Shown here one piece after another: positions 6,521 to 32,312 of a DNA stretch of 64,000 bases. Under the pieces are notes generated by a model. That model saw nothing but the letters and a program-made list of their open reading frames with translations, was not told the origin of the DNA and made no database searches. The position numbers were made by a program, and so were the translations under genes. The stretch comes from Candidatus Woesearchaeota archaeon (GTDB lineage Archaea > Nanobdellota > Nanobdellia > Pacearchaeales > GW2011-AR1), in the NCBI GenBank assembly GCA_964621025.1, contig CAZUKQ010000002.1:35292-99291 (forward strand). The letters run 5' to 3'. The first letter of the stretch is position 1. Every line of letters begins with the position of its first letter.

Positions 6521-6543
6521 TTCTTCAAGAATTTAAGTCATAA

Positions 6544-6732: not shown

Positions 6733-6859
6733 TATTATACCTCTAATTATTTATAATAAATTGTTTTTATATAGTTTACTAAAAAGATTTATACCAATTC
6801 TTGGCACGAGAGATTTTAGTTGGAGATAAATTTAAATAGGTGTTTTAATTTAAGTAATT

Positions 6860-13653: not shown

Positions 13654-13730
13654 ATTAGAACTTACTGAGACTTATTTATATAGTTTGTTAAAGGAGTAAA
13701 CCTTATAATCTTCTTTTTTCTTTTTATCAT

Positions 13731-14602: not shown

Positions 14603-15246
14603 TTAACCTTATTCAACTTCTCAACAATTCGTTTTAGGTCTTTGAAATCTTTTATGATAAAGTCTGGTTTTTCTTTCATAATTGTTGCTTTTGTGGACCA
14701 AGCACATTGATTATGAATTGCAACTGCATAACAGCCGGCTTCTCGAGCGTAATCAACGTCGGAAAATCTGTCACCTATATACATTGCTTCTACTGGACGA
14801 ATTTTCATCTTTTTGAATAACTCCTCTAACAATTTATCTTTTGTGGTGAATTTTTCAGCGCCGTAAATTTTGTTAAACAATTTTTTTATTCCAAGAGCCT
14901 TGACAGAGGCTTTTATAAATGATGAATGAGAGTTTGATATTATCATTAACTTAATTCTTTCTTTTTTTAATTCTTTTAAAGGTTCAACAGAAACACATAG
15001 ACTTAGTTTTTCTTGCTTTGCGCCTTTGATTACTCTTCTGTAGAAAACTTTGTTTATTTTCTTTGAATCGGCATGAATATTTAGGCCTTTCAAAATATCT
15101 TTTGTTTTAACTCCCATTAGCTGTTTGAATTTTTTATCTTCAAATTTATAGCCAAGTTCTTTCAGAACAGAGTACATTGTTTCAAAAGTTAGTTTTCTAG
15201 CGTCAGAGATAGTTCCATCAAAATCAAACAGAAGAGTTTTAATCAT
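14599..15246 (-). CDS. HAD-superfamily hydrolase (phosphatase)
   Basis: Motif I LLFDFDGTISD (DxDGT), plus a later S/T motif and a terminal GD..SD. Confidence 0.8.
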   Translation of the reverse strand: MIKTLLFDFDGTISDARKLTFETMYSVLKELGYKFEDKKFKQLMGVKTKDILKGLNIHADSKKINKVFYRRVIKGAKQEKLSLCVSVEPLKELKKERIKLMIISNSHSSFIKASVKALGIKKLFNKIYGAEKFTTKDKLLEELFKKMKIRPVEAMYIGDRFSDVDYAREAGCYAVAIHNQCAWSTKATIMKEKPDFIIKDFKDLKRIVEKLNKVN

Positions 15247-15247
15247 T

Positions 15248-17276: not shown

Positions 17277-19145
17277 TTAATAGACTAATTCAAAATCTCC
17301 GAAAGATTTTTTCAAGATTTCTAATGCTTTTAGGTCAATTTTAGATTCATTTTTCTTTTCGGCAAGTCTTTTTTGCAGTTCTTCAGCATTTGAGTCTACT
17401 ATTTTCCCTTCTAAAATCTTAGTTATTTTGTCTCCTTCAACTACAAATGTGTTTCCTAAAAAGAATACTTCTGCAGATTTCTTATTTCCTTTAATTATGA
17501 ATCTTGTTCGGTCCATTGACATGAAATCGCATCTTTGATTATATTCTACAAGTGCGTTGATAACTTCCATTCCGCTTCTTCTTGCTTTTTCAACTTCGTT
17601 TATCTCTTTTCCAGTCAACAAATCTTTTTTCTTTTCTTTTTTAGCTTCGTTCTTTTCAGATTTTAATTCGTCCTTTACTCTGATAAGAACTTTTAGGTTT
17701 TCAAGATATTTTCTCGGGAATTTTCCAGTTTTAATCATCTTATTTTCAAATTCCTTAACAACATCTGCTTCTTTTTCTTTTTTCAACATAGGTCTTAACA
17801 TTCCCAAAACGTCTTCATATATTTGTGAAATACTTTTTTCCTCAACTCTTTTTTCAATTTGTTTTCTCAGATCTTTTAGTCTAGTGTAATAATCAATAGA
17901 GTCTTTTACTAATCTATCTAATTCTTGTCCCGAAACTTTCTTGATTTTTCCGTGTTCGAATCCTTTGTAGTATTTTATAACAACTTCTTCGAGAATATCT
18001 GCGTATTTTGCTTCTACAAGTTTCTCTTTTTCTACGAAAATTTCTCTAAAGGCTTTTACAGTTTCTTTAGGAGTTGAAGGTGTTAGCCCGTAAATCATAA
18101 GTAGACCTTGTGTTGGTGTTGAAATTCCCCAATATAAATCATGAAGAACTACATCCATTAATTTTCTTTCGACCATTTCGCCCATTTTATCGCCTGAGGA
18201 CATGAACATATCAATTGCTTCAGGTGTTGGTTTGATTTTTCCTCTTCTCAATAAAGATTTCCAAGGTAGGAAAACTGCTCTGTCGTAAAGTGGAACACCG
18301 TCTCTTAGAAAAGTGAAAGCTACAGGTTCTGCGTCTCTCAATCTTTCCCAGAATTCTGTTAACAATGCAACTTGAACGTTTAGAACATTTCCAACGCCAG
18401 CCATTGCAGTTGCTTCTGCAATATAACTGTAAATTATTGAACGTAACTTTTCTCTGATTTCTGCACCGGACATTCTTTTTACATCAGTATCATCGATTAT
18501 TACGAAAACATCTACATCTGAAGTTTTTTTTGCTTCGCCTCTAACTAGAGAACCTGCAATAATATAGGAAGTTACGTATTTTTCGAATTTTTTTAAGACT
18601 AAAGTTCTGTGAATCATTGAAACTCTTAGAGCACCAAGCAATCCTTTGTCGAAAAGAGGGAAAGACATTGCTATCGCTTCCATTACATCGAATTTGCTAT
18701 CTAAACCTAGGTTCCAAACATCAACTGGAGTCATTATATGTGTCCAGATTTTGTCGTTGTATTTCTTTGCTGTTTTGATAACTTCTGCTTTTATCTTTGC
18801 TAAGTTTTTGAATTGGTTTTCTGGAAGAACTAAAATAATGTGGATAAGTTTTTTGTCTGCTGCTTCTTTTGCAATTTCATATTCTTCTTCTATTTTTTGA
18901 TTTGCTTGTGCAGGAATTATCCCTATAGATTCAATAAATTTGTATTTTGTTTTGATTTCCTTCGTGAATTTGTCAATGTCTTGCTTTGTTTTGTCTGCTT
19001 CTTTCTTCATTTTTTCTTCTAGAGAGCTTTGAATAGTGTTTGCAATTGGAAGATCGCCCAGTTTTCCTTTAGGAACATATCCGCTAGAAAGGTTTTTTTC
19101 AACAGAAGCATTTTCAGTCTTTATTCTAGAACTTGGTTCAGCCAT
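17277..19145 (-). CDS. large Pol-beta-superfamily nucleotidyltransferase-domain protein (unknown specificity)
   Basis: Catalytic signature GSLVRGEAKKTSDVDVFVIIDD (hG[GS]...D.D), flanked by a Lys/Glu-rich coiled-coil N-terminus and a long helical C-terminus. Does not follow the archaeal CCA-adding enzyme pattern. Confidence 0.5.
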   Translation of the reverse strand: MAEPSSRIKTENASVEKNLSSGYVPKGKLGDLPIANTIQSSLEEKMKKEADKTKQDIDKFTKEIKTKYKFIESIGIIPAQANQKIEEEYEIAKEAADKKLIHIILVLPENQFKNLAKIKAEVIKTAKKYNDKIWTHIMTPVDVWNLGLDSKFDVMEAIAMSFPLFDKGLLGALRVSMIHRTLVLKKFEKYVTSYIIAGSLVRGEAKKTSDVDVFVIIDDTDVKRMSGAEIREKLRSIIYSYIAEATAMAGVGNVLNVQVALLTEFWERLRDAEPVAFTFLRDGVPLYDRAVFLPWKSLLRRGKIKPTPEAIDMFMSSGDKMGEMVERKLMDVVLHDLYWGISTPTQGLLMIYGLTPSTPKETVKAFREIFVEKEKLVEAKYADILEEVVIKYYKGFEHGKIKKVSGQELDRLVKDSIDYYTRLKDLRKQIEKRVEEKSISQIYEDVLGMLRPMLKKEKEADVVKEFENKMIKTGKFPRKYLENLKVLIRVKDELKSEKNEAKKEKKKDLLTGKEINEVEKARRSGMEVINALVEYNQRCDFMSMDRTRFIIKGNKKSAEVFFLGNTFVVEGDKITKILEGKIVDSNAEELQKRLAEKKNESKIDLKALEILKKSFGDFELVY

Positions 19146-19513: not shown

Positions 19514-19586
19514 AAAATTTATCGATCCCGTGGTCTAGTGGTTACGACGTCTCGTTTACACCGAGAAGATCACCGGTTCAATTCCG
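19514..19586 (+). tRNA. tRNA-Val (anticodon TAC)
   Basis: Cloverleaf folded by hand: acceptor GATCCCG/CGGGATC, anticodon stem TCTCG/CGAGA with loop TTTACAC, T-arm ACCGG-TTCAATT-CCGGT, discriminator A. No encoded CCA. Confidence 0.85.
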
Positions 19587-19620
19587 GTCGGGATCATTCG
19601 TAATTCTATTCAAATTTTTA

Positions 19621-20202
19621 TTAAGCAGCCAAAGTGAATAGGTTGTAAGCGCCAGTGAATATCAATTCTATTGCTATTGCTGTCAAGAATAGGCCCAAGA
19701 TTTTAGAGCTGATTTTGATAACTTTAAGGTTTATTTTTCTGATGCTGTAGGAGAACAGGACAAAAACAATCCCTACTAGAATAAATGTTGGGATGATGTT
19801 TAAAAGAAGCGCAGTTTTTCCTATTTCTATAGATTTGATTATTATGAATGAAATTGTAGCCGGACCAGTTAAAAGAGGGGTTGCTAAAATAGAAATTAGG
19901 CTGTCAACTTTTCCAACTTTATCTTCTTTTTCTTTATCTCTAACGGTGTCTAGGCCAAGTAAAAGTAAACAAATACCTCCAGCAATTCTAAATGAATCGA
20001 TGGTTATTCCAAAAAAACCGAAAAGGCTTGAACCTATGAGGCAGATGATAATCGCAATAACGAATGCTAACAATGAAGCTTGAACTGCAATTTTTTTAAC
20101 ATTCATTTTGTTTTGATATGCAGTAAATAGAACTGGAAAAGACGAAAAAGGATTTATCAGCACAAACATTTGTACAATCAATGCAAGACTTATAATTTCC
20201 AT
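19621..20202 (-). CDS. marC: MarC-family integral membrane protein
   Basis: Six predicted helices. N-terminal LINPFSSFPVLF and GICLLLLGLD motifs typical of the MarC/UPF0056 family. Confidence 0.7.
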   Translation of the reverse strand: MEIISLALIVQMFVLINPFSSFPVLFTAYQNKMNVKKIAVQASLLAFVIAIIICLIGSSLFGFFGITIDSFRIAGGICLLLLGLDTVRDKEKEDKVGKVDSLISILATPLLTGPATISFIIIKSIEIGKTALLLNIIPTFILVGIVFVLFSYSIRKINLKVIKISSKILGLFLTAIAIELIFTGAYNLFTLAA

Positions 20203-20262: not shown

Positions 20263-22176
20263 TTACTCTTTCTTTCTATTTCTTCTTACTTTGTATGCTG
20301 CGATTGCACCAGCTGCTCCAAGAATGTATGGCCAAGGTCCAAGATAGATTTGTTTCTTAAGAAGAGGATTGTTTTCTACAAATTGTCCTTTAAATTCAGA
20401 TTCAATTCCATACTTTTGAGCTAGGTCTTTTGCATAAGGTCTTTTTGTTGCGTTAAGTAATTTGACGATGTCGTATCTTGCAACCAAAGTAGATTCTTGA
20501 GTAAGGGCTCTGCTTAAATTTCCAACGTTCAAATCATTGAATAACATTATGTCACTTCTTTGGTCATTTATGAATCCCAAAACTGAATGTTGGCCAAATC
20601 CTCTATGGATTTGATCAGGCATCAAAGATTCCATATAGGCCCCATATTTGAAATATTGCTGTGAAGTTTTCATATCGCTTTCTGATGGAGCCATAAATGA
20701 ATAGTTTGCTGTTAGTGTGAGGTCTGTTTCTGGTTTTATTCCCCTTGCAAGTTTTTCTAGTTCGACTATTTCGTCGTGTGTAGGTTTACATAAAACTTTT
20801 CCAATAAGTTCTTTTTTCTTGTCTATTTTTCCGTTGCCGTTCAGGTCAAGATAATAACTGTAAATTACGTCGCTACCATAACTCAGGAAGAAATCTCTTA
20901 TTTCTATTCTAGCTATTTCTCCGAATTTGTCTTCTAAAGAGTAACCGCCGTTGTTGTATTTATCGAATAAATAATTTGCATCTTTTCCCTTTCCAAGTTT
21001 AAATGATTTAATAATTGGCCAAGAACCTGGAAAAAGGTCCCATTCATTTTCAACTCTTAGAATGTTTGATTTGTCTCTGTTAACTCCAAGCCACTGACTA
21101 AATCTTTGTAGATTACTTGGATCTTCTCCAAGATAAATTGTACTTTCTTGAGGTAATATTTTTAGAACACCATCTTCAAAAGTGGAGTAGATTGGTTGTT
21201 TTTTCATTTGACTAGTTAAATCAACCATTTTATTAGCTAATTTTTCTCTAACTTTTTCATTAACTGAGCTTGAACTGTTAATTGCTTTTACTGTTTTGAA
21301 GAATTCATCTGCTAAAACTTTGTTTTCAGGAGTTTCAAGAAAATCTTCTAGCAATGTTCCTTCTCTGTAAAAGTCTCCAAATAAAAATCCAAATACTCCT
21401 CTTTTTTCAGCTAGACGGTTAACCATTACTCTTTTGTCTAGTTTACCTCGGTGATCTGTTTCAATAATCCCTAGTTCGTTTGGACCAAGAGTTCCATCAG
21501 TAGGAAATTCTACAACGTCTATGTCAACTTGTCTTGTTCCTCTTTCCGGATCATGTTTGTATACCATGTATTTGTTTGCACCTTTTGTAGATGTACCATC
21601 TTCATCTACGATTAATTCTGCAAATTGTTCTTTGAAATTTATGCTTCCACCGATACTCAATCCTGCCTGAAATCTTTCTGGTTTTTGATCGGTAGCAGCA
21701 ATTCTTCTCTGTTGAGTGTTGAACATTTTGTAATATTCTATATCTCCTCTTGTTTCTCGAATAGTTTCTGTAATGAAAGTTCCAACTTTACTTTCTACTC
21801 CTCCGCCTTCCTGTACTTGTGTTATTGATTCTCTGTCGGCTTTTTCTGCAGCTTTCTTCTCTTTATTTCCTGCGACGTAAACTGTATGAGATGTTCGGTA
21901 GGTGACATTTCTTTCAGCAACATTCTGTCTTTTTGTTAAATAATCATAACTTAACCAGGCTACTCCCAAACCCAATGCTACTGCACCAATTTTAAGATAA
22001 GGTCCGAGATGCTCGCTGCTTTCTTTTTTTAGAGTTTCAAATCCTCCTTTTAGTTTATCTGCGAGTGTCTTTTTTTGTGGAGCTCCAGCTAAATTTTCTC
22101 CAGTTGGTTCAACTGAAGGTCTATTTGACATTCCTTCTTTCAGTCTTGCGATTCTTTCGCTGTTATCTTCTACCAT
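20263..22176 (-). CDS. hypothetical 637-aa protein with N- and C-terminal TM anchors (island gene 6)
   Basis: TM helices near residues 60-80 (IGAVALGLGVAWL) and 610-630 (GPWPYILGAAGAIAAY) with a large intervening domain. Gln/Arg/Gly/Thr-rich composition unlike the neighbouring genes. No known motif. Confidence 0.5.
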   Translation of the reverse strand: MVEDNSERIARLKEGMSNRPSVEPTGENLAGAPQKKTLADKLKGGFETLKKESSEHLGPYLKIGAVALGLGVAWLSYDYLTKRQNVAERNVTYRTSHTVYVAGNKEKKAAEKADRESITQVQEGGGVESKVGTFITETIRETRGDIEYYKMFNTQQRRIAATDQKPERFQAGLSIGGSINFKEQFAELIVDEDGTSTKGANKYMVYKHDPERGTRQVDIDVVEFPTDGTLGPNELGIIETDHRGKLDKRVMVNRLAEKRGVFGFLFGDFYREGTLLEDFLETPENKVLADEFFKTVKAINSSSSVNEKVREKLANKMVDLTSQMKKQPIYSTFEDGVLKILPQESTIYLGEDPSNLQRFSQWLGVNRDKSNILRVENEWDLFPGSWPIIKSFKLGKGKDANYLFDKYNNGGYSLEDKFGEIARIEIRDFFLSYGSDVIYSYYLDLNGNGKIDKKKELIGKVLCKPTHDEIVELEKLARGIKPETDLTLTANYSFMAPSESDMKTSQQYFKYGAYMESLMPDQIHRGFGQHSVLGFINDQRSDIMLFNDLNVGNLSRALTQESTLVARYDIVKLLNATKRPYAKDLAQKYGIESEFKGQFVENNPLLKKQIYLGPWPYILGAAGAIAAYKVRRNRKKE

Positions 22177-22182
22177 GCTACT

Positions 22183-23067
22183 TTATTTACGTCCTAAAAC
22201 ATTTTTCTCGAAGTCGTCTAGTTCTTGTTTTCTTTTTGCCTTAGCATCGTCTAGTTTCTTCTGAGCAGCTTGTTCTTTGGATCTTCTTTTGTCAATAAGA
22301 CCTTGTCTTATTGATTCTATTCCAGTTCCAATAGCACTAGTTACGCCTACAGTAGCCTTACCAGCTTTTTCTCCAATAGCCGCGCCAATTTCTCCAGCAG
22401 ACAAATCTTTTTTCATTTCATTCTGTTCTGGACTCTTAGCTAGTTCTAGATTAGCTGTAGCTGAATAAGTTCTAACAACTTCTAAAAGTTTTCCGTCCTT
22501 TGTTAGTTGTTTAAGAATGTTATTCACTTCAGTTTCTTCTTTGGATCTTCGGATATAATCTTTTGTTTTAAGCATTCCTTTTCCAAATTGCAATCCTAAG
22601 AACAATCCTGCTGCTTGTGCAGGTGTGTACAAAAGTGCGTTAATTGGATTCCCTACTCCTGTCGCAATACTTGAAGCAGTCACAATTCCGTCGCCTACAA
22701 GTTCTATACCGAAAGCAGTTCCTAATTGAGCACGAGCACTTAAAGTGTTTAGTCTCTCATATGGTTTCAATCTTCCAAGTCTTTCTGTAAGTCTTTCTGT
22801 TCTAGATGTATTTTGTGTTGTTACAGTTTCACCATAACTTCTAAAATATTCTCTTGCAGTCATTACGTTTTTCAAATAGTCTTGAGAACTTGTTTCTTCT
22901 GAATGTTGTACTAGATATTCTAGTGCTTCAGCTTGTCCAAGTTTTTTTGCAATTCGTGTGTCTGCATTTCTTCTTGCGTTTTCAGAATAGTGTCTGTCTG
23001 TTAAAGACAAAGCTAGTCCGCCGACAAAATGTCCAGCAAAGTTTAAACCCATTTCTTGTAATGTCAT
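22183..23067 (-). CDS. hypothetical 294-aa protein with Gly/Ala-rich segments (island gene 5)
   Basis: Contains GVGNPINALLYTPAQAAGLFLGLQFGKG and SAGEIGAAIGEKAGKATVGVTSAIGTGIES. The C-terminus is charged and coiled-coil. No known motif. Confidence 0.5.
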   Translation of the reverse strand: MTLQEMGLNFAGHFVGGLALSLTDRHYSENARRNADTRIAKKLGQAEALEYLVQHSEETSSQDYLKNVMTAREYFRSYGETVTTQNTSRTERLTERLGRLKPYERLNTLSARAQLGTAFGIELVGDGIVTASSIATGVGNPINALLYTPAQAAGLFLGLQFGKGMLKTKDYIRRSKEETEVNNILKQLTKDGKLLEVVRTYSATANLELAKSPEQNEMKKDLSAGEIGAAIGEKAGKATVGVTSAIGTGIESIRQGLIDKRRSKEQAAQKKLDDAKAKRKQELDDFEKNVLGRK

Positions 23068-24359
23068 TTTTTACCTCCTTGTTGATTTAGTTGATTTTCA
23101 AGTAAAACACGAGCAACATGTCTTTTTCGGTTTAGGGGCATCGAAGGGAATTCTCTTCTTAATTTGCTTCTGTTGTATTCATACATTCTGATAACATCTG
23201 TAGGGTCTATTTCTGCAAGTAGGTGATTGATTACTTCTGGTTTAGATACAGGTTCAGAAAGTTTTAACATTGTTTCGTAACATAATTCATCGGCTTCTAC
23301 TAATTCTTTAATTTTTATACTAGAACTTCCTAAAACTTTTCTCACCTTACTCATCTCAGTCCAAGTAGGTGATAATTCTGAGGAGTGAGCTGTTACTTCT
23401 CTTTTTCTAGCAGTGTCATCTAAGTCTGCTAAATCAATTCCAGCAGTGAGAAGAGTTTCATCTTCCATTTCTTGTAATCTTCTACCCACTAAATCCGGAT
23501 TAAATTGTAGGAATTTGTATTTATGTAATGTTTTGATTAATTCTGTGTCGTGTAAGTCAGAAGTTAATATTTCAGAACTCAAATCTTTCGGTTGGCCTTG
23601 ATGATGGGAAATAAAAATTCCTGCAAGGTCGTCTTTATTTTTGAAATTTCTCAAACAGTAAGCTCCTTTAAAAAATTCAGCATAGAAACAGTGAACTTCT
23701 TTTGTTACAGGAAATACTTTTGAAATTGCTCTGTTTGTTGAACCACCTAATATGGCTGCTAATCCTTGAAGTTGTGAAATGTATTCGTCATCTAGTGCAT
23801 TGTGCACATTTAATTTTCCAAGCATCTGATCCAATCTTAAACAATTTTTTACAGTTCCTCTTGAAGTGTCCAAGTTTACTTCTACAGTTCTTAATTGAAG
23901 TAAATCATCTGCTGTTTGAAAAATATCTACGCCGTCTTCCATTTCACCGAATAAAGCTTCTGAGTGAGTGACATCTTCGATAGTATGCTTTGCTTGTCTA
24001 TAAACTTCGTCGAATAAACCATTTTCATAGGAAGTTTGAGGAAATACTAGAGGAGCATCTTTTTGGTCTGGAGAAACTACAATCATGTATCTATTAGCCG
24101 AACCAATGTTAAGATAGTTTTCTCCAAATTCTAAAAGTCTATGTGTCGGATTTTTTTCTTTTAAGTGTGCAGCAACTTCCGGACTTAATCCTCTTTTGTC
24201 TACTCTAAAAGAATCTAATGTACAGTCCCAACTGAAAGCTTCTTTCAAAACTGCGTTGTATCTTTTTGCAAGTTCTCCGTCGACAGTAAGGAGTCCTTGA
24301 TTGATTAAGCCAAGTTGTTCTAAATCAACATTTCTTTTTGATATTTTTATTTCTGCCAT
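23064..24359 (-). CDS. hypothetical 431-aa protein (island gene 4)
   Basis: Overlaps the downstream gene by 4 nt, suggesting translational coupling. No recognisable motif. Confidence 0.5.
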   Translation of the reverse strand: MAEIKISKRNVDLEQLGLINQGLLTVDGELAKRYNAVLKEAFSWDCTLDSFRVDKRGLSPEVAAHLKEKNPTHRLLEFGENYLNIGSANRYMIVVSPDQKDAPLVFPQTSYENGLFDEVYRQAKHTIEDVTHSEALFGEMEDGVDIFQTADDLLQLRTVEVNLDTSRGTVKNCLRLDQMLGKLNVHNALDDEYISQLQGLAAILGGSTNRAISKVFPVTKEVHCFYAEFFKGAYCLRNFKNKDDLAGIFISHHQGQPKDLSSEILTSDLHDTELIKTLHKYKFLQFNPDLVGRRLQEMEDETLLTAGIDLADLDDTARKREVTAHSSELSPTWTEMSKVRKVLGSSSIKIKELVEADELCYETMLKLSEPVSKPEVINHLLAEIDPTDVIRMYEYNRSKLRREFPSMPLNRKRHVARVLLENQLNQQGGKK

Positions 24360-24360
24360 T

Positions 24361-26223
24361 TTATTTTCCAGTTAGTCTTTTCATTGCCTCTTGATTTACT
24401 TGTGCTTGATGCATTACTTTCTTGACATCTGATTCAAATTTTTCTTGAGTGTACACGTCTTGGTTTTTTGCGTATCTTATAATTTCTCTAGCGATATCTT
24501 CTGCGGAAACTTTTTTAGATAAATCTCTTAGGATTCCGACTCTTTCTTCATATGGTTTAAAGAAAAATTCGTTTGGATTTTCAAACCAAGTTTCTGGAAT
24601 ATCATAATCGTTAATTCTTTTTTTGATTGCGTCAGAAACAGAATCAATAGGTCTTCCGGTAAATCGAGGGTTTAGTCCCTTGTAATAAACACAGAGTTCA
24701 CCAATATCTTTGAAGGTTTTTATTCCGCCTTTGAATCTTGAAAGTGCTTCGTTTACAAATTTTTCATCTTCTTTCGAGGTGATTTCAAAACCAGTTTGGC
24801 CTTTTCTCATTTCAAAAGGAGTGTATCCTTTGCCAAGTTCAACGTCGATGATACTCATTCCAGGTTTAAGCCAACTTCCAAGTTTGTTTCGTAATATGTC
24901 TGCATAGTCATACCATTCTTGAGGACCATCTACTTGATATTGTGAACCAAATCTCTGAAGTAACGCTGCGTCTAGAGAAGTAGGTGCGTTTGTAGCAGCC
25001 CACCATTGTACATTTCCTCTTTTTCTTTTACTCAAATCTGTTCCAGCCATTATCTGCATTAATCCATTCAAAATATCTTTATCTGCTCCACCATTGCTAC
25101 CGTCTCTGTCTCCTTCCATCAATAAGTCAATATCATCTATAACTCCAATGTTCAGTCTTGTTGGGTCAGCAGTTTCGTCGTCTGCAGCAGCCATCTTTGC
25201 AGCAGTTCCACCATACATTTTATCTTTAACTTTCGGATCTATCATTATTCTATGTAAGTTAAGTCCTTTGGCATTTTTTTCTTTCCAGAATTCAGCTGTT
25301 TGATCGCATCTAAGTTTTGCTCTTGTCCAACCAGCTAAGAATAAAGTAGACTTACCAGTTCCGGGAAGACCGACGTAAAGAACGCTCCAAGATAGCCCTC
25401 CAACTTCGCCAATAGGATTCTTTTTTAATATTGGATCGTAAAGTCCTAATCTGTCCATGTCTCTAAACATTTCTTTTTTAGCAAGAACATTTCCTGCAAC
25501 TTCATGAGGTTGAACTAATGTGAATTCTGTTTTAGAAGCAGTTTTTTCTTCAAGTTTGCTTTCAAAACCAGAGAGAGTAAATTCTCCCATAACATCGAAG
25601 TTAGTAGTACTTACCAAATCTACTAATCTTTTATTTAGATTAGGTTTTAATTCAAGCGCTTTACTTTTTAGGTGTTCAAAATATGGAATGGTTGATTGGA
25701 CTAGTTCTTGTCCGTTGTTTATTATACTTTTATCTTTTCTGTGTTTGGTAATTCCATAATATACTGCAAGAGTATTATTAAGGACTTCATTTTCTGTTTG
25801 ACTAAAATCTGGATTAAAGGTTTTTATAGGAAATTCCATTGGTTCACCCTGTAATATTTTACTAAGTCTGCTTTCAATGAAGGATGCTGCTCCGAACGTA
25901 GAATAAGCTCCCATGAAAGTTCTTTTTTCTTTGTCAGGAATTTCTCCATCTATTTTTTCCTGAATCATTCTTCTTTGAAGTTGTTCATATAATTCCCCGT
26001 ATAAAGAAAAGCCACTTCTTAGAGCGTCGGTTGTCCCAACTAATTCGTTATCTAATTTTAAACCTTTTATTAAGTCTGTCAAGCTTGGTCTATTTTGTGG
26101 GTCGATTCTAACACAATTCATTCTGCTATCTACATCTGCTCCTCGTTTTTCTAGTGCGTCTTTAGATATAGGTATTAAATTGCCGCTCATTTGTTTCCTC
26201 CGTTTATGCCATAAACTCTGCAA
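24361..26223 (-). CDS. AAA+ ATPase, classic clade with Vps4/spastin/katanin-like sensor/Arg-finger region (island gene 3)
   Basis: Walker A VLYVGLPGTGKST, Walker B IGVIDDIDLL, sensor-1/Arg finger WAATNAPTSLDAALLQRFG (compare ATN.P..LD.A..RRF of meiotic-clade AAA). About 270-aa N-terminal and 190-aa C-terminal regions are unassigned. Confidence 0.75.
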   Translation of the reverse strand: MQSLWHKRRKQMSGNLIPISKDALEKRGADVDSRMNCVRIDPQNRPSLTDLIKGLKLDNELVGTTDALRSGFSLYGELYEQLQRRMIQEKIDGEIPDKEKRTFMGAYSTFGAASFIESRLSKILQGEPMEFPIKTFNPDFSQTENEVLNNTLAVYYGITKHRKDKSIINNGQELVQSTIPYFEHLKSKALELKPNLNKRLVDLVSTTNFDVMGEFTLSGFESKLEEKTASKTEFTLVQPHEVAGNVLAKKEMFRDMDRLGLYDPILKKNPIGEVGGLSWSVLYVGLPGTGKSTLFLAGWTRAKLRCDQTAEFWKEKNAKGLNLHRIMIDPKVKDKMYGGTAAKMAAADDETADPTRLNIGVIDDIDLLMEGDRDGSNGGADKDILNGLMQIMAGTDLSKRKRGNVQWWAATNAPTSLDAALLQRFGSQYQVDGPQEWYDYADILRNKLGSWLKPGMSIIDVELGKGYTPFEMRKGQTGFEITSKEDEKFVNEALSRFKGGIKTFKDIGELCVYYKGLNPRFTGRPIDSVSDAIKKRINDYDIPETWFENPNEFFFKPYEERVGILRDLSKKVSAEDIAREIIRYAKNQDVYTQEKFESDVKKVMHQAQVNQEAMKRLTGK

Positions 26224-27302
26224 GGATTTCCATATTCGTTGTGGTCTCCTCTCAGATTTTGTTTTATTCTCGTCGGCACTATTAATCCTTCGTGCATTAG
26301 TTGAGCTTCAGAATAAATTTCATATTCCATAGGTCTTTGAGTTACAACTGCTTTGATGTGTTCTAAAGTATTTCTAAAAACTCTTCGTCTGATGTCTACA
26401 CTTAAGGCTAATTCAACTTTGAATTTCAAAGCAGATGGGTCTTGACATCCTTCGAAGGCTTTTATCATTTGTTCAGAATTAGAAGTAACCGAATCATAAA
26501 ATGGACCTAGAGTATATTTTCTAACTTCTTTAGGGTGTATTTCTTCTATGGACTGGTTTAATCTAGTAGCAAAACTTTTTAGTCCTTCAATTCCGCTTTT
26601 AGTTTGTTGAATAAAGTCTTCTAGTTTAGGATTTGGTGTTGCAGGTTTATCTCCTTCGGCATGTAATGCTGGGAAATTTTCATTTTGTGTAAACCACATT
26701 TTGTAAAATACAGGTACTGCCGGAGAAGATTGAAGACTACACCAGTCGATCGCATAAAATCTTTTTTGGTTATTTGTTCCTCGGAATTCTAGTTGACCAG
26801 GAACGACTCCTTCACCTGGAAGAGTTTTTGTTTCTAGCAATTTACTGTAGTAAAGATTTCTTTTAAGAAGAATTTGTTCATGTGCAATTGGTTCTCCAGC
26901 TTTAATTTTCCATTTCATAGTATTTAACAAAGCAGGTTGTGTTGGGAGTTGAGCTAAAACTTCTTGAGCTTGTTCTCTATCTTTGTCTAAATAATAAAAA
27001 TCTTTGAAAGTAGGAAAACCTGATTCGAAAGGAAGAATGGTTGGTTGAAAGTCAATTCTGTCTTCGCCTTCAGTAGCATGTTTCAGTCTTAAACAATCTA
27101 AGCTGTCTATCAGAAAGTCTAAACTAGGCGATAAAAAACTGTGATCAAATTGTTCGGTAGAAATTTCTCCAATTACTCCTTTGAATTCTGTAACTTTTTT
27201 TATTAGTCTGTTAAAATAAGGAACAGCTTGTGTAGAATCTAATCTTCTCAAACTATTAGCCGCTTCTCTTTCAAAATCTTTCAAACCCTCTGTAAGTTCC
27301 AT
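26187..27302 (-). CDS. hypothetical 371-aa protein (island gene 2)
   Basis: Its 3' end overlaps the AAA gene start by about 37 nt. No recognisable motif. Confidence 0.5.
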   Translation of the reverse strand: MELTEGLKDFEREAANSLRRLDSTQAVPYFNRLIKKVTEFKGVIGEISTEQFDHSFLSPSLDFLIDSLDCLRLKHATEGEDRIDFQPTILPFESGFPTFKDFYYLDKDREQAQEVLAQLPTQPALLNTMKWKIKAGEPIAHEQILLKRNLYYSKLLETKTLPGEGVVPGQLEFRGTNNQKRFYAIDWCSLQSSPAVPVFYKMWFTQNENFPALHAEGDKPATPNPKLEDFIQQTKSGIEGLKSFATRLNQSIEEIHPKEVRKYTLGPFYDSVTSNSEQMIKAFEGCQDPSALKFKVELALSVDIRRRVFRNTLEHIKAVVTQRPMEYEIYSEAQLMHEGLIVPTRIKQNLRGDHNEYGNPCRVYGINGGNK

Positions 27303-27318
27303 TTGATTTAATAAAGAA

Positions 27319-28536
27319 TTAAGCTCTAGTAGGATCTGCAGCTGCGTAATCAGCCTTTGCAGTTCCGACTACCTTTTCGTAAAGTTCTCTTGAAGCCTTG
27401 GATCTTGCTAACCAAGTATTTAATTCATCAGGAGTCATAGGTTTAGCAGTTGTTCTTGCTCCTAATTCTCCCAAGATAGCTTCTGTGTGAATTGCTCCGA
27501 CTTTTACAATTTCTGCAACCGTTTTGTCCATTGCAACATCTGCTTGACCGAAAGATCTAACTTGGTAACCCGTTTTTAAGATTGTTTCAATATTTGTGAA
27601 TAGGACTGTTCTGTTGTCAATCTTTTCTTGCATATCAACAATACCATTGTTAATTCCTCTGATAATGTCTCTAAAGTTGGATAAAACTTGTTCTTGGTAT
27701 TTCAAGTCGTTTTGAGCGTTTTTTACAATTCCGAAGTAAAAGTCTTCTTGAGTCTTAGCTGTTTCAAGTGCGTCTCTAACTTCAATTCTTTCTTTGTCTT
27801 TAGCTGTTCTTGCTTCTCCAGTTAGTGTTGCTAGTTGTAATTCTAATTCTCCTAGTTTTATTTCTTCTTTCTTTCTTTCTGTTTGCCAAGCATCATATTG
27901 TTTTTCGTTTTCAAATAGTTTGGTCATAGTTGTATCTCTTGTTGATTGAACTTCATTTGCAGCCTTTTGGTTGTTTATACCTGCCTGGTACATTACATCT
28001 TTCATAGACTTGTAGTAATCTAAGAGTGTAATTACATTTTGATCTAAAGTTGATTTAAGAATTCTTTTTGTTCTTAGTTTTTCTGCTTCTTGCTGTAAAC
28101 CTACTCTTGCTGTTTCTAATTTTGCTTTGTTATAAAACTTGCCAATGATTGGAAGATTAGCTTTTTTTGTTAAATTGTCAGCTTTATCAATTAACAATTG
28201 TTCTTCAGGAAGGTAGGTAGTTATTCCACCAAGGTATTGTTCAATTTCACCAAAAGTAGATGTTAAGAAACCAACTGTTTCACCAACGAAGGAAGTAAAT
28301 TCTTTACCCGTTTCAAGTGCTGCTTCAAGTTGGCTTTGTCCAGTTTTTACATCTCTAACTCCTCCAGCTAAAACCTGTTCAGATCCTTGTCTGTATGTTT
28401 TAAGAAATTCTTCGTTAGATTGCTGTAACTTTTGTGCTTTACCAGCAATGTCTGTTTGTTTTTTCCCAGCTTCAGTAGTCATTTGTTCAAATAAGTTTGT
28501 TTTGATTAATGTTGTTGGTGCTGTTTCGTTTACCAT
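27319..28536 (-). CDS. hypothetical 405-aa coiled-coil protein (island gene 1, promoter-proximal)
   Basis: Almost entirely heptad-like, charged helical sequence (KLGELELQLATLTGEARTAKDKERIEVRDALETAK...). Could be TelA-like, ESCRT-III-like or another helical scaffold; I could not tell which. Confidence 0.45.
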   Translation of the reverse strand: MVNETAPTTLIKTNLFEQMTTEAGKKQTDIAGKAQKLQQSNEEFLKTYRQGSEQVLAGGVRDVKTGQSQLEAALETGKEFTSFVGETVGFLTSTFGEIEQYLGGITTYLPEEQLLIDKADNLTKKANLPIIGKFYNKAKLETARVGLQQEAEKLRTKRILKSTLDQNVITLLDYYKSMKDVMYQAGINNQKAANEVQSTRDTTMTKLFENEKQYDAWQTERKKEEIKLGELELQLATLTGEARTAKDKERIEVRDALETAKTQEDFYFGIVKNAQNDLKYQEQVLSNFRDIIRGINNGIVDMQEKIDNRTVLFTNIETILKTGYQVRSFGQADVAMDKTVAEIVKVGAIHTEAILGELGARTTAKPMTPDELNTWLARSKASRELYEKVVGTAKADYAAADPTRA

Positions 28537-28626
28537 GTTCGTATGATTATTTTATCAAAAGTTCATATTTAAATCTTTCGTTTTTGTTACTCTTTTATAA
28601 TTACCACACTAATCTTTTGAGAAAAA

Positions 28627-28697
28627 TGCAGTCGCCGAGAATCGAACTCGGGTCACAACCTTGGCAAGGTCGTATTCTACCACTAAACCACGACTGC
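28627..28697 (-). tRNA. tRNA-Gly (anticodon GCC)
   Basis: Reverse complement gives GCAGTCG...CGACTGC-A. Anticodon stem CGACC/GGTTG with loop TTGCCAA, T-arm CCGAG-TTCGATT-CTCGG. 71 nt. Confidence 0.85.
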
Positions 28698-28823: not shown

Positions 28824-29642
28824 ATGAAATACGATCAATTTGAAAAACACCGGGCAAAGTCCATGACAAAAATATCTCTTGATAAATGTAATCCTGAAGA
28901 TACTTCTATTTTTCCCGAAGGTAAACAAGCAGCTATGGAACTTCTTGTAGGGGTTAATCAGGAATTAGGTAATCTTCAAGATATGCTTTATGCAGAACAT
29001 AAAAATAAATTATTGATAGTTCTACAGGCAATGGATACTGGTGGAAAAGATGGAACAATTAAAACCGCTTTTAGCGGATTTGGTCCTCAAGGTGTGAGGG
29101 TTGTCAGTTACAAAGTTCCTACTGCTGAAGAAACGAGTCATGATTATTTATGGAGAGTTCACAAACAAGTTCCTGCTAGTGGAGAAATTGTAGTGTTTAA
29201 TAGAAGTCATTATGAAGATGTTTTGTCTGGTAGAGTTCATGGAAAAATCTCCGAAGAAGTTTGTGAAAGAAGATATCAACACATAAATTATTTTGAGAGA
29301 ATGTTATCTGATGAAGGAACCACTATCTTGAAATTTTTTCTTAATATAAGCAAAGATGAACAAAAAGAAAGATTAGAAGAAAGATTGACTAATCCTTCGA
29401 AAAATTGGAAATTTAGTACAGGCGATCTTTCTGAAAGAGAATTTTGGCAAGATTACATGAAAGTTTATAGCGACGTAATTAGTAAGACAAGTAGCTCTGT
29501 TGCTCCATGGTATATTATTCCTTCAAACAAAAATTGGTATCGGAATTTAGCTGTTGCTTCTATTACTGCAAATACTCTTAAAAAATTAAAAATGAGTTAC
29601 CCTTCTACAAGTATTGATTTGAAAGGGATTGTTGTAAACTGA
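28824..29642 (+). CDS. ppk2: polyphosphate kinase 2 family protein (polyphosphate:nucleotide phosphotransferase)
   Basis: Walker-A-like LQAMDTGGKDGTIK motif and PPK2-typical length of 272 aa. Confidence 0.75.
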   Translation: MKYDQFEKHRAKSMTKISLDKCNPEDTSIFPEGKQAAMELLVGVNQELGNLQDMLYAEHKNKLLIVLQAMDTGGKDGTIKTAFSGFGPQGVRVVSYKVPTAEETSHDYLWRVHKQVPASGEIVVFNRSHYEDVLSGRVHGKISEEVCERRYQHINYFERMLSDEGTTILKFFLNISKDEQKERLEERLTNPSKNWKFSTGDLSEREFWQDYMKVYSDVISKTSSSVAPWYIIPSNKNWYRNLAVASITANTLKKLKMSYPSTSIDLKGIVVN

Positions 29643-30716: not shown

Positions 30717-32312
30717 TTATTCGTAATCGCTCATTTCACTAATGTCGTGTTTTTTTGGTTTGATTTTTCCGGAAGCAATTATGTCATCAATTCTAAGAAT
30801 CATCATGGAAACTTCCGAAGCTGATGCGACTGCCTGAGTTTTTACTCTCAGAGGTTCGATTATTCCTTTTTGCATGGTGTCTTCGATTTTTCCGTTAAAT
30901 AAATTTAATCCGAAATTTTTATTTCCAGATTCGTGATGAACTTTTAATTCTGTTAAAATGTCCAAAGGATCTAGACCGGCATTTTCTGCGAGAGTTGTTG
31001 GAATAAATTCCATTGCAGACGCAAATTCCTGAACTGCAAGTTGTTCTCTTCCTTTTAATGTTCTTGCATATTCTCTCAATCTTTTTGCAAGTTCTACTTC
31101 AACTGCTCCACCACCAGCAACAACTTTTGAGTCTTTCATAACTGCGGAAACATCTCCAAGGGCGTCCATGATTGCTCTTTCAATTTCGTCGATGACATGT
31201 TCAGTTCCACCACGAATTAATATTGTTACCGCTTTTGGATTTTCGCAACCAGTGATGTAAGTCATGCCTTCTTCATTTTCCTTTCTTTCTTCTACTCTTT
31301 TTGCAAAACCTAAATCTTCTTTTGTCAATTCCTTAATATTTGTAACAATTTTTCCGCTTGTTGCCTTTGCTAATTTCAGCATGTCAGTTTTTGCAACTCT
31401 TCTTACTGCGTAAATTCCTTTTTTAGCTAAATAGAACTGTGCAGATTCATCAATTCCTCTTTGACAAATTACAACTTTTGCCCCTACTTCTTCTAACTTT
31501 CCAACCATTGATTTCAATAAATTTTCTTCTTGGTTTATGAAACTTTGAAATTGGTCTGGAGAAGAAATTGAAATTCTTGTTTCTCTTTCTAAACCTTTTA
31601 CTTCAAGAGCGCATTCTAGTAAAGCGATTTTTGCATTTTCAACAACTAGGGGCATTTCTAAAGAAACTCGTTCTTTGTCTAAAACAATTCCGTAGATTAG
31701 TTCTGTTTTTTCAATTGATTCGCCTTTTTGTTTTTCTATTTTTATGTCATCAAGATTAACTTTTCCGTCAACAGCTACGGCTTTTACTGCGTTGATTATA
31801 ATGCTATCAAATTTTTCTTTTACATATTCTGCGCCCTTTCCGGTCATTGCTGTTTGTGCGATTTTCGCTAGTTCTTCTTCAGTAGAAATTTCAATTGCAA
31901 GTTCATTCAAGATTTGTTTAGATTTTTCTGCTGCTAGTTTGTAACCTTTAGTAATAATCGTTGGGTGAATTTTTTGGTCTAATAATTTTTCTGCGTTTTC
32001 TAAAAGTTTTCCAGCTAACATTACGGCAGTTGTTGTTCCGTCGCCAACCTCACTTTCCTGAGTCTTTGCAATTTCAACAATCATTCTTGCAGCAGGGTGT
32101 TCAATTTCCATTTCAGATAAGATTGTTACTCCATCGTTTGTTACAGTAATGTTTCCTGCAGAATCAACTAACATTTTGTCCATTCCCATTGGACCTAAAG
32201 TTGTTTTTACAGTTTCAGCTAAAACTCTCGCAGCTAGAATATTATTTCTTTGGGCATCTTTTCCCATGAATCTTTCTGTGTTATCGGAAGTGATTGGGTT
32301 GTTAGTTGTCAT
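30717..32312 (-). CDS. ths: thermosome subunit (group II chaperonin)
   Basis: N-terminal [39 protein letters not shown] and C-terminal VAGGGAVE are canonical thermosome/CCT motifs. 531 aa. Confidence 0.9.

Follow-up and report, generated by a model that had tools for sequence, protein, structure and literature searches.

The 64,000-nucleotide stretch of Candidatus Woesearchaeota DNA that we analysed (here called the window) encodes an AAA ATPase whose catalytic motifs are easy to read, and it raises the question of what kind of machine this ATPase drives and with which partners. A reading made earlier from the letters of the sequence (the sequence-only reading) saw in it a resemblance to the meiotic clade of AAA proteins (Vps4, spastin, katanin) and suggested, together with an upstream coiled-coil protein, an ESCRT-III/Vps4-like or substrate-disassembly pair. 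We looked into the motifs and layout of the protein, the genes encoded with it, the loci in which these genes recur, and the known AAA systems to which it can be compared.

Catalytic motifs and domain layout of the ATPase

The open reading frame at 24361..26223 (−, minus strand) is present in the window, and the motifs named in the sequence-only reading can be read in its translation; its length of 620 aa, counted from a TTG at 26223, had to be corrected. We placed the start at the ATG at 26190, which gives a protein of 609 aa (g3; 24361..26190, −; supported by the ORF, Pfam, homologues, and an AF2 model), because this ATG overlaps the stop codon of the upstream gene g2 as ATGA, is preceded by GGAGG 8 nt 5′, agrees with the 609 aa of the database protein P0001, and encodes the Met at which the alignments of homologues begin. 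The protein passed the gathering threshold of Pfam PF00004 (E = 3e-10, 41 bits, cut-off 21.2), a model that was matched in 34 of 34 diverse members of the family. Besides the window's own protein, 38 homologues were found, nearly all of them full-length and 40 to 87% identical, and K280, D352, N401, and R413 were invariant across the 34 diverse relatives. The Pfam score, the homologues, and the invariant catalytic residues together indicate that the motifs did not arise by chance.

An alignment of the members placed the Walker A motif GLPGTGKS, with the invariant K280, at aa 274-281 (25348..25371, −). Pore loop 1 (KDKMYGG in the window protein; 25207..25227, −) follows a family pattern [YF]-[QY]-G, with Gly327 kept in 33 of 34 members, and is aligned by HMMER with the pore loop of Cdc48 (SKMAGES / SMWYGES). 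The Walker B motif ends in VIDDID (25126..25149, −; IDDID, aa 351-355). Its Asp352 is invariant, and Asp353, found in 33 of 34 members, stands at the position of the catalytic Glu of Cdc48, as HMMER pairs iDDiD of this family with iDEiD of Cdc48. The sensor 1/Arg-finger stretch, ATNAPTSLDAALLQRF, covers aa 399-414 of the 609-aa protein; sensor 1 (N401) and the second region of homology (SRH), ATNAPTSLDAALLQRFGSQYQVDGP, were located at 24922..24996 (−) from the member alignment, and R413, the invariant Arg finger, aligned to ALRRFGR of Cdc48. The SRH has the short form D-x-A-x-x-x-R-F-x-x-R-x-x-V-x-G-P, without the PGR(F/L)D insertion, both in the family consensus (MDPALRQRFxARYxVDGP) and in the window (LDAALLQRFGSQYQVDGP), so the sequence-only reading was right to set it apart from the RPGRFD form. 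Finally, a lid motif, F-T-G-R (24652..24663, −), was recognized from its invariance in members and from an AF2 helix (512-526). Its invariant R513 lies at the start of this last lid helix, at a sensor-2-like position with a corresponding putative role.

The protein is a single-module classical AAA ATPase in which the Walker A Lys, the Walker B Asp-Asp, the Asn of sensor 1, a single Arg finger, and the aromatic-x-Gly motif of the pore loop are under strong purifying selection, and the gene is read as encoding an ATP-driven protein-remodeling motor. In the classical AAA clade the Walker B Asp is followed by a catalytic Glu (hhhhDE), and the lid (GxSGAD-type) lacks a sensor-2 Arg. Judged by its DD Walker B, its Arg513, and the lack of an AAA_lid_3 match, the present family is atypical within that clade. 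With Asp in the place of the catalytic Glu, the enzyme might hydrolyze ATP slowly or act as a switch instead of working processively, which counts against the reading favored below.

The AF2 model (mean pLDDT 83.4) comprises an AAA core, a lid, and helical N- and C-terminal domains. The family-specific N-terminal domain (aa 1-215; 25546..26190, −), delimited by AF2, Pfam, and a profile search of the PDB, begins with a short strand and helices, continues with four long helices (48-77, 86-112, 133-153, and 160-180), and ends in a small beta sheet (196-213); its profile found no MIT protein among PDB sequences (best E = 0.26). The nucleotide-binding core (aa 225-440; 24871..25518, −) was defined by PF00004, HMMER alignments to Cdc48 D1/D2, and Foldseek, with a conserved pre-Walker segment beginning near aa 229. 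Four helices predicted at aa 426-526, among which a loop is inserted near 442-467, may be read as the AAA lid. They are followed by a family-specific C-terminal extension (aa 527-609; 24364..24612, −; defined by AF2, the member alignment, and the C-termini), in which the motif D-[FY]-[DE]-x-P-x-x-W...P..F is conserved and which ends in a helix of 46 residues. An HbYX tail is absent, there being no penultimate Tyr in the eight C-termini inspected (e.g., ...KRLTGK).

The ends of the protein are therefore specific to the family, as had been proposed, but the 270 N-terminal and 190 C-terminal residues given for them were overestimates of regions that truly span about 1-215 and 527-609. As had also been anticipated, these regions match no ordinary domain: only AAA-type P-loop Pfam models recurred among the 34 members, and the N-terminal domain found no counterpart in the PDB. 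Pfam detected one AAA module in the window protein, and neither a membrane anchor nor a protease domain was found in it. The best Foldseek matches of the model were the substrate-threading unfoldases Cdc48 (E = 3e-8), Rix7, NVL, AFG2, and Vps4.

The operon and its recurrence

The ATPase gene is the third of six tightly coupled genes (g1 to g6) in an operon of 8.3 kb, preceded about 30 nt 5′ of the g1 start by TTTAAATA (28566..28573, −), a candidate archaeal TATA box read in the sequence that is probably the operon promoter. The first gene, g1 (27319..28536, −; ORF and family HMM), encodes the 405-aa all-alpha coiled-coil protein, which the sequence-only reading had paired with the ATPase; the two genes are not adjacent, g2, a gene for 371 aa, lying between them. 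The g1 family is fast-evolving (mean column identity 33%, one invariant Arg) and 350 to 525 aa long, and no transmembrane segment was found in it; its Pfam matches amounted to coiled-coil noise. With respect to the ATPase, g1 may be a client or a scaffold. The g2 product (26187..27302, −; ORF and alignment) has the conserved motifs SGFPT and IGPFY and matched nothing in Pfam or the PDB; its archaeal and bacterial versions are homologues (BLAST E = 1e-8 to 1e-11).

Downstream of the ATPase lies g4 (431 aa; 23064..24359, −), a genuine member of DUF6638 as judged by its match to PF20343 (E = 1.7e-22; 80.4 bits against a cut-off of 27; positions 12-399 of the 439 in the model). Its AF2 model is a confident alpha/beta fold (pLDDT 90.8, pTM 0.87) for which no structural relatives were found (best Foldseek E = 1.3 in the PDB and 0.74 in BFVD; best profile E against the PDB = 0.041), and on this model DUF6638 looks like a new fold. 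The last two genes occur in the archaeal lineage only. The ORF g5 (294 aa; 22183..23067, −) has Gly-rich, moderately hydrophobic segments (aa 6-22 and 115-131), no Pfam match, and no homology to its bacterial counterparts. The ORF g6 (637 aa; 20263..22176, −) has hydrophobic segments at aa 60-76 and 610-626, and 11 of 13 archaeal members are anchored at both ends; its central domain of about 530 aa matched nothing in Pfam or the PDB and contains a DxNxNGxID motif resembling a loop that binds calcium. No internal homology was detected by hhalign among g1, g2, g4, g5, and the N- and C-terminal domains of the ATPase. Among the six proteins, only the AAA core has a recognizable domain, g4 matching an uncharacterized Pfam family.

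The order g1-g2-AAA-g4 was fixed in 27 loci, of which 15 are archaeal, counting the window, and the other 12 belong to bacteria, Nitrososphaera, or the phage-like contig, with partial exceptions at L016, L024, L030, and L031. The co-occurrence of the ATPase with the coiled-coil gene, raised in the sequence-only reading, was borne out: g1 was upstream in 25 of the 27 loci by family HMM and tblastn, where the L016 locus ends before g1, g1 of L024 is kept by position only, and g1 and g2 of L030 and L031 are assigned by size and position only. DUF6638 was the invariable downstream partner, and start and stop codons overlap within the core genes (translational coupling; ATGA, GGAGG). The hosts are DPANN archaea, Nitrososphaera, Flavobacteriales, Rhizobiaceae including Sinorhizobium meliloti, Vibrio megaplasmids, and one phage-like contig, and the sharing of the four-gene core by the last five of these points to a portable machine rather than a lineage curiosity. 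The family is rare: out of 1.84 billion clusters at 50% identity, 129 belonged to it (E < 1e-30); at 90% identity there were 39 ATPase and 56 DUF6638 clusters, and a pattern-limited scan of a genome collection gave 12 genome loci. Given this rarity, we abandoned the thought that all DPANN might carry the operon. PycTM, HEPN, ParE, and Imm5-like genes were seen near some loci.

The genes 3′ of the core are for membrane proteins, and each lineage has its own families of them: g5 and g6 in DPANN, DUF2333 in Rhizobiaceae, and in one locus a TM-anchored dynamin-like GTPase (Dynamin_N, E = 6.5e-13) with a Band_7 gene nearby. Bacterial loci have proteins with two to three TM segments downstream. The DUF2333 partner (Pfam matches of 131 and 27.8 bits) was found in S. 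meliloti, Shinella, Nitrososphaera, L024, and L031. No homology was detected by hhalign between archaeal g5/g6, their bacterial counterparts g5′/g6′, and DUF2333, and in Vibrio-type loci the module is followed by mfd rather than by an obvious membrane gene; for both reasons the link to the membrane is contextual. DUF6638 (PF20343) and DUF2333 (PF10095) are names of uncharacterized families only. In the literature searched, DUF6638 was not mentioned and DUF2333 once, in passing, nor does any connection of the two families with an operon of an AAA ATPase appear to have been reported there. The coiled-coil gene, g2, the ATPase, DUF6638, and the varying membrane proteins form an undescribed gene module, with the ATPase as its signature.

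Candidate functions of the module

The reading that we favor, tentatively, is that the ATPase is the motor of an uncharacterized, horizontally spread, membrane-associated machine, whose ring threads a partner polypeptide and recycles g1 as scaffold or client at the membrane. The protein would form a hexameric ring that pulls the partner through its pore with ATP, while the helical, family-specific N-terminal domain would dock the co-encoded cytoplasmic partners. As g2 and DUF6638 have no catalytic-type conserved His, Cys, or Glu, they may be adaptors or structural subunits. The motor would take apart or recycle the fast-evolving g1, as its client or as a scaffold, and the lineage-specific membrane proteins would adjoin this site at the membrane. 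Such a machine would resemble Vps4/ESCRT-III or NSF/SNARE in its logic rather than by demonstrated homology to either, and to this extent the looser idea of a disassembly pair is plausible, although the ESCRT-III/Vps4 homology proposed with it was not upheld. The likeness to NSF/alpha-SNAP/SNARE lies in the combination of a classical AAA motor, a helical adaptor, and a coiled-coil client at a membrane. NSF was among the profile matches (104 bits for two domains), but there is a single AAA module here, g1, g2, and g4 have no homology to SNAP or SNARE proteins, and the syntaxin and V-SNARE models gave single noise matches to g1 members (E = 0.016 to 0.05).

The rarity and patchiness of the family would also fit an accessory or a conflict role, which counts against the favored reading. 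The module could be a conflict system (anti-phage defense, superinfection exclusion, or anti-defense) in which a sensor/regulator core containing the ATPase controls interchangeable membrane-disrupting effectors, a possibility that we consider unlikely. Its distribution across domains, and a fixed core followed by non-homologous membrane proteins, an arrangement known from abortive-infection systems, are as expected of such a system; so are its presence on Vibrio plasmids of about 0.9 Mb and within the phage-like contig, where 8 of the 10 ORFs flanking it match PHROGs (E = 1e-19 to 1e-50), and the PycTM and other genes noted near some loci. The ATPase IetA of the anti-phage and anti-plasmid system IetAS was weakly matched by 9 of 34 members (best E = 5.8e-10), and an SGR-type lid motif recalls TRIP13, as a lead only. 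However, the IetA scores are no better than those for CDC48 or CdvC, no IetS protease or HORMA partner is encoded here, and the N- and C-terminal domains and the operon are unlike those of IetA and TRIP13/Cap6. Nothing significant was found for the six operon proteins in PADLOC-DB v2 (for the ATPase only IetA, E = 0.03, and TRIP13, E = 0.04) or, for the six module proteins, in PHROGs (one weak match of the ATPase, E = 0.0035), and searches of GenBank phages and IMG/VR found no relatives of DUF6638 or the ATPase. Moreover, there is no nuclease, protease, or NADase effector, and the neighbors are housekeeping genes in the window and most loci. The module also occupies the same chromosomal site, between tdk and fhs, in the Rhizobiaceae Sinorhizobium and Shinella (in S. 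meliloti, genes around SMc02729-SMc02733), and even divergent DPANN lineages keep all six genes in one strict order.

Somewhat less likely again, in our judgment, is that the ATPase serves the membrane or surface proteins encoded with it (g5/g6, DUF2333) as a chaperone, an extractor, or a motor for quality control, with g1, g2, and DUF6638 as adaptors, after the logic of Msp1/ATAD1, FtsH, or EccA. Most loci do encode membrane proteins downstream, the pore loop is intact, and the N-terminal domain recalls the helical adaptor domain of EccA, which one member matched weakly (E = 0.0034). Msp1/ATAD1 and FtsH are likewise classical AAA proteins in a membrane context, and Msp1 has a short SRH; they differ in that the ATPase here has no transmembrane anchor or protease domain. 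Furthermore, the supposed clients come from unrelated families, yet the N-terminal domain and the adaptors are conserved, and in some loci the gene that comes next does not encode a membrane protein.

Relation to known AAA systems and meaning

The remaining readings would assign the ATPase to a known AAA system. That the module is a true but very divergent Vps4/ESCRT-III scission system of the CdvC/CdvB type, with g1 as an ESCRT-III/PspA polymer and the N-terminal domain as an MIT derivative, we consider improbable. Vps4 and CdvC share with the present system a single AAA module, a short SRH, a coiled-coil gene in the same operon, and a helical N-terminal domain. Of the 34 members, 15 matched CdvC (best E = 4.3e-9), and the locus with the dynamin-like GTPase and the nearby Band_7 gene can be added in favor. 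In addition, Vps4/SKD1 was the best single-module match of the family profile in the PDB (69.6 bits, against single-domain scores of 64.0 for Cdc48 D1, 63.3 for Cdc48 D2, and 63.1 for VAT), but this lead of only about 5 bits over Cdc48 D1 arises from a longer alignment through the SRH, and the placement is a score ranking rather than a tree. Neither the window nor the loci examined for this contained another AAA gene as an in-genome reference. A short SRH also occurs outside the meiotic clade, in SpoVK/CbbX and TRIP13, and is therefore not diagnostic of it.

Membership in the meiotic clade, or in Vps4, was not supported by more specific features either: MIT (PF04212, at E ≤ 0.5), Vps4_C (PF09336), and AAA_lid_3 had no Pfam match in any of the 34 members, no beta-domain signal was found, and the window protein scored 17.7 bits with the CdvC equivalog model NF041006, whose cut-off is 650. 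An MIT-like fold at the N terminus, for which the sequence-only reading proposed a test, also appears unlikely, since an MIT domain is a three-helix bundle of about 75 aa and the AF2 domain here has about 215 aa, at least four long helices, and beta elements. Vps4, katanin, and spastin are not known for a DD Walker B or for an invariant Arg in the lid, and the C-terminal extension of 80 aa with its terminal helix and the obligatory partners g2 and DUF6638 set the present system apart from Vps4/CdvC as well. At the sequence level, g1 does not look like an ESCRT-III protein either. Snf7 (PF03357), PspA_IM30 (PF04012), and TelA were not among the Pfam matches of 17 members (E ≤ 1, best 25 of 56 families), and a profile search of the PDB returned keratin and myosin coiled-coil noise only. 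ESCRT-III and PspA proteins have about 200 to 260 aa, with a basic N-terminal and an acidic C-terminal half; this charge polarity was not found in the longer g1 proteins, whose N-terminal quarter was net negative in 14 of 17 members.

The Cdc48/p97/VAT/AFG2 group gave the best Foldseek and best whole-chain HMM matches, and it can be aligned with the family over the pore loop, Walker A, and sensor 1, but these proteins have tandem D1-D2 modules, their alignments to the profile end at the SRH, and Cdc48-type proteins carry a double-psi-barrel N-domain. An ordinary proteostasis unfoldase, a proteasome activator of the PAN or Cdc48 type, is very improbable even though Cdc48 and PAN were the best whole-chain PDB and NCBIfam matches (best NCBIfam E among the 34 members, 2.9e-10 for CDC48 and 1.7e-8 for PAN) and one relative carries the source name "Proteasome-activating nucleotidase", as the window protein scored 21.8 bits with TIGR01243 (CDC48; cut-off 802.65) and 15 to 24 bits with the PAN models (cut-offs 500 to 700), has one AAA module, no HbYX C terminus, an SRH without PGR, and, in the AF2 model, no coiled-coil/OB or double-psi-barrel N-domain, and is encoded in a dedicated operon. 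The FtsH model gave 16.9 bits (cut-off 600). The sequence-only reading had kept the protein apart from proteasomal and FtsH ATPases, and with scores so far below the cut-offs it is not firmly of the PAN or Cdc48 type. On these comparisons the ATPase belongs to a family of its own and is not a recognizable Vps4, proteasomal, or Cdc48 enzyme.

A bolder form of the favored reading is speculative, and we would not expect it to hold in full: g1-g2-AAA-DUF6638 might be an unrecognized, ancient, mobile machine for membrane remodeling or repair, in which a polymerizing coiled coil is recycled by a dedicated AAA protein, an analogue or extremely remote relative of ESCRT-III/Vps4, with DUF6638 as a new fold. 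According to a 2025 review, DPANN is the one archaeal group without reported ESCRT-III, and a Vps4-like ATPase appears absent in bacteria (PMC7619361). The genomes of DPANN archaea are tiny, yet some of them keep this tightly coupled operon of six genes. The presence of the module in S. meliloti makes the question open to ordinary genetics. If the module remodels membranes, it would be a new ATP-driven system beside ESCRT-III/Vps4 and PspA, and it would bear on how membranes are cut or repaired in DPANN cells, which are reported to lack ESCRT-III.

The AAA ATPase and its family

The open reading frame from 24361 to 26223 (minus strand) was real in the window DNA, and its translation contained GLPGTGKS, IDDID, and ATNAPTSLDAALLQRF, the motifs quoted in the sequence-only reading; it matched PF00004 at 41 bits (E value = 3e-10, cutoff = 21.2). 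The start and domain limits noted earlier needed correction. The gene should begin at the ATG at 26190 instead of the TTG at 26223, since this ATG and the preceding gene's stop overlap as ATGA, a GGAGG stands 8 nt before the ATG, an identical database protein is 609 aa long, and the alignments of homologues begin at this methionine. Residues are numbered by the 609-aa version throughout.

Across 34 diverse family members, K280 (Walker A), D352 (Walker B), N401 (sensor 1), and R413 (Arg finger) were invariant, as were G422, R513, and P532. The HMMER alignment placed Asp at the position of the Cdc48 catalytic Glu in 33 of the 34 (iDDiD versus iDEiD). Pore loop 1 retained a [YF]-[QY]-G pattern, which suggests that the protein may thread a substrate. 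In the AF2 model (pLDDT, 83.4; pTM, 0.59), the invariant Arg of the lid motif F-[TS]-[GS]-R starts the last lid helix, at the sensor 2 position, and we infer that role for it here. Typical classical AAA proteins have lost sensor 2. In the model, the N domain (aa 1 to 215) opens with a short strand and helices, continues with four long helices, and closes with a small sheet. An MIT-like fold had no support in domain and profile searches: MIT matched none of the 34 members, and the N-domain profile had no match in PDB (best E value = 0.26).

Apart from the window's own protein, a word-indexed search recovered 38 relatives (40 to 87% identity, nearly all full length), with source-given names that were DPANN (Nanoarchaeia, Pacearchaeota, and Nanoarchaeota). 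By exhaustive profile search, the family comprised 129 clusters at 50% identity with an E value of <1e-30 and 371 with an E value of <1e-10, including Flavobacteriales and Nitrososphaera relatives of 620 to 660 aa, and homology ran end to end, N and C regions included. A rough neighbor-joining tree gave three subfamilies: the archaeal six-gene type; one of Flavobacteriales, Nitrososphaera, and bacterial contigs; and one of Rhizobiaceae, Vibrio megaplasmids, and low-GC contigs.

The PGR(F/L)D insertion is missing from the second region of homology (SRH), which is of the short form (family consensus, MDPALRQRFxARYxVDGP), as the sequence-only reading had it. Searched against PDB as a whole chain, the family profile ranked the two-module proteins Cdc48 (130 bits), VAT (122 bits), and AFG2 (115 bits) on top. 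Split by module, Cdc48 scored 64.0 and 63.3 bits and VAT 63.1 and 56.7 bits; the top single-module chain was Vps4/SKD1 (69.6 bits), whose 5-bit lead arises because its alignment continues through the SRH, where the Cdc48 alignments end. The best NCBIfam E values were 2.9e-10 for CDC48 (23 of 34 members), 5.8e-10 for IetA (9 of 34), 4.3e-9 for CdvC (15 of 34), and 1.7e-8 for PAN (13 of 34), and the window protein scored 15 to 24 bits against each model (cutoffs, 500 to 800). Foldseek with the AF2 model returned Cdc48, Rix7, p97, AFG2, and NVL (E values of 3e-8 to 1e-6) and Metallosphaera Vps4 (1.4e-6). These E values, scores, and rankings do not discriminate between AAA clades. On score and motif comparison, the protein appears to represent a separate, atypical family inside the classical AAA clade. 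Membership of the meiotic clade was not demonstrable, with Vps4_C and AAA_lid_3, like MIT, matching none of the 34 members and the CdvC score far under its cutoff.

The operon and its four-gene core

The AAA gene (g3, 24361 to 26190) is the third of six minus-strand genes separated by gaps of at most 16 nt or overlapping: g1 (28536 to 27319; 405 aa, coiled coil), g2 (27302 to 26187; 371 aa), the AAA gene, g4 (24359 to 23064; 431 aa, DUF6638 at an E value of 1.7e-22), g5 (23067 to 22183; 294 aa), and g6 (22176 to 20263; 637 aa). Ahead of g1 are a TATA-like box and, directly upstream on the same strand, a tRNA-Gly(GCC) gene (28627 to 28697, minus). A tRNA-Val(TAC) gene (19524 to 19596, plus) lies ~670 nt past the downstream end, and the two tRNA genes flank the cassette and one small membrane-protein gene (19621 to 20202). 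Farther out, a 622-aa protein (17277 to 19145, minus) has an NTP_transf_2/Polbeta nucleotidyltransferase domain at aa 185 to 236 and long helical stretches; a review lists a DPANN-specific MNT-HEPN family in housekeeping contexts (PMC6393860). A group II chaperonin-like protein (thermosome; GDGTTT motif; 30717 to 32312, minus) and a polyphosphate-kinase-2-like protein (28824 to 29642, plus) were judged by eye, and such neighbors would be a housekeeping context, not a defense island.

Using HMMs of the six families, we found the six-gene order kept in all 14 other archaeal loci, which come from MAGs of Woese-, Pace-, and Nanoarchaeia and from a deeper branch labeled Euryarchaeota SM23-78 or Methanosarcinales; L016, a 3-kb fragment, holds g2 to g4 alone. 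In two archaeal MAGs, a frameshift or assembly error has divided g2 into two ORFs (L015, 6192 to 7100; L021, 3819 to 5001), the other five genes being intact. The core g1-g2-AAA-DUF6638 is retained in bacterial, Nitrososphaera, and phage-like loci. The co-occurrence of the ATPase gene with the coiled-coil gene holds in other genomes, g1 being placed by position in L024, where the HMM missed the protein. For L030 and L031, only size and position identify g1 and g2.

The g1 protein is fast evolving (mean column identity, 33%; sole invariant residue, one Arg), all alpha, and without a transmembrane segment. It gave coiled-coil noise only against Pfam and PDB, and ESCRT-III-like charge polarity is absent. 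Most members carry within the first ~20 residues an acidic-hydrophobic motif (NLFEQM, DIFEQL, DLLDEL, MLQLLED, or LQNFDAEI; window 28450 to 28536); that the ATPase might recognize it as a tag is pure speculation. No relatives of g2 were detectable by Pfam scan of its alignment members or by profile search of PDB. The AF2 model of DUF6638 is very confident (pLDDT, 90.8; pTM, 0.87). Foldseek matched it to nothing in PDB (best E value = 1.3) or BFVD (0.74), and a profile search of PDB sequences was likewise negative, which points to a novel-fold partner. The positions of DUF6638 that never vary between domains hold Arg, Tyr, Ser, Asn, Gln, and Asp, conserved His, Cys, and Glu being absent; it may be a structural or adaptor subunit. 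Comparison of g1, g2, g4, g5, and the AAA end domains gave no homologous pairs.

Membrane-protein neighbors and replicons

In 11 of the 13 archaeal g6 family members, hydrophobic segments lie close to both termini. A DxNxNGxID motif in the conserved central domain, YYLDLNGNGKIDKKKE (window 20809 to 20856, g6 aa 441 to 456; DLNGDGKID as the family consensus), resembles a DxNxDGxID-type calcium-binding loop and suggests an extracytoplasmic Ca-binding domain; g5 has moderately hydrophobic, Gly-rich segments. Bacterial downstream genes encode clear 2- to 3-TM proteins of ~180 to 200 and ~520 to 530 aa. DUF2333, with predicted N-terminal hydrophobic segments, is an alternative partner (Nitrososphaera, 131 bits; L024, 27.8 bits; Sinorhizobium meliloti, Shinella, Sinorhizobium sp., and L031). 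On L025, a 26%-GC contig, the usual membrane genes give way (13366 to 15746) to a membrane-anchored dynamin-like GTPase (PF00350, E value = 6.5e-13) whose hydrophobic segment is C terminal (weak Reticulon match, E value = 0.006), a two-TM protein of 91 aa, and, after the GTPase, DUF1523. Band_7/SPFH is encoded four genes upstream of g1 (5806 to 6666), and three of five tested ORFs matched PHROG. SecA and several of the PHROG-matching genes are in the vicinity. Vibrio-type loci have mfd in place of membrane genes. No homology was found between the downstream membrane proteins of different lineages. In the bacterial locus L022, a PycTM-family (Pycsar effector-like) transmembrane protein lies just upstream of g1 on the same strand (6713 to 7228), and no cyclase gene is annotated in the 22 kb covered there.

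Large Rhizobiaceae replicons carry DUF6638 and the AAA gene, as do plasmids of ~0.9 Mb from Vibrio parahaemolyticus and V. vulnificus. On these low-GC Vibrio "plasmids" (NZ_CP062152.1 of V. parahaemolyticus, 133046 to 151492), mfd comes directly after the four-gene core, and genes for an A24 prepilin peptidase and DUF3592 lie nearby; L030, an unrelated metagenomic contig, has the same arrangement. In S. meliloti Ak57 (CP090106.1, 2659750 to 2678439; a 3.7-Mb record labeled pSymB, probably the chromosome), the order is tdk/g1-g2-AAA-(endonuclease-domain gene, ISRm16)-DUF6638-DUF2333/fhs, with the IS4-like ISRm16 transposase between the AAA gene and DUF6638. The endonuclease-domain gene (DUF559-like) is also present in Sinorhizobium sp. 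K101, and the Shinella locus has neither gene. Module genes and flanks are shared by all three, which speaks for a stable chromosomal locus. In a microarray supplement, SMc02729 is described as a "hypothetical transmembrane protein" and SMc02730 as a "conserved hypothetical protein," which fits DUF2333 and DUF6638, and a DNA-binding screen placed a ChvI-binding fragment inside SMc02733 (PMC3687685), probably g1 or g2.

On L031 (contig logan:SRR10367862_64062, 6955 to 12979), g1-g2-AAA-DUF6638-DUF2333 is set among short ORFs that follow one another in long series on the same strand. PHROG families were matched by 8 of the 10 flanking ORFs tested (E values of 1e-19 to 1e-50; Thg1-like, DprA-like, QueE-like, and others), and by gene content the contig looks like a large phage. 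Neither the contig nor relatives of the module were found in GenBank phages or IMG/VR.

A proposed membrane-linked module

An intact classical AAA motor is combined with a fixed four-gene core and variable membrane-protein neighbors. Our preferred reading, a tentative one, is that the AAA protein would form a hexameric ring whose family-specific N domain docks co-encoded cytoplasmic partners and which, at the membrane, threads one of these or takes it apart, g1 being the most plausible candidate. Such a scheme resembles Vps4/ESCRT-III and NSF/SNARE in logic, with homology undemonstrated.

A conflict system with interchangeable membrane effectors would suit the patchy distribution and the presence on a phage-like contig and megaplasmids, but it is made unlikely by the housekeeping surroundings, by the stable locus in Rhizobiaceae, and by the lack of matches to defense models. 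That the ATPase is a chaperone or extractor serving the membrane proteins seems to us rather less probable. For a true divergent Vps4/ESCRT-III system, close to one of the possibilities raised in the sequence-only reading, the SRH form and the co-occurrence with the coiled-coil gene stood, and clade membership and ESCRT-III identity did not; we consider it very improbable. A 2025 review finds ESCRT-III homologues in all major archaeal lineages but DPANN and a Vps4-like ATPase apparently absent from bacteria (PMC7619361), and a 2024 ESCRT survey leaves DPANN unmentioned (PMC10936438). An ordinary PAN- or Cdc48-type unfoldase is scarcely credible and was rejected on the model scores and on the lack of an HbYX tail in all eight AAA-family C-termini inspected.

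Within the library searched, we found no mention of DUF6638, and the module therefore appears undescribed in that literature. The finding is larger than an ATPase paired with a coiled-coil protein: an orphan AAA family is the marker of a membrane-linked module that is conserved across domains and includes a partner of putatively novel fold, and the module is open to testing in S. meliloti.
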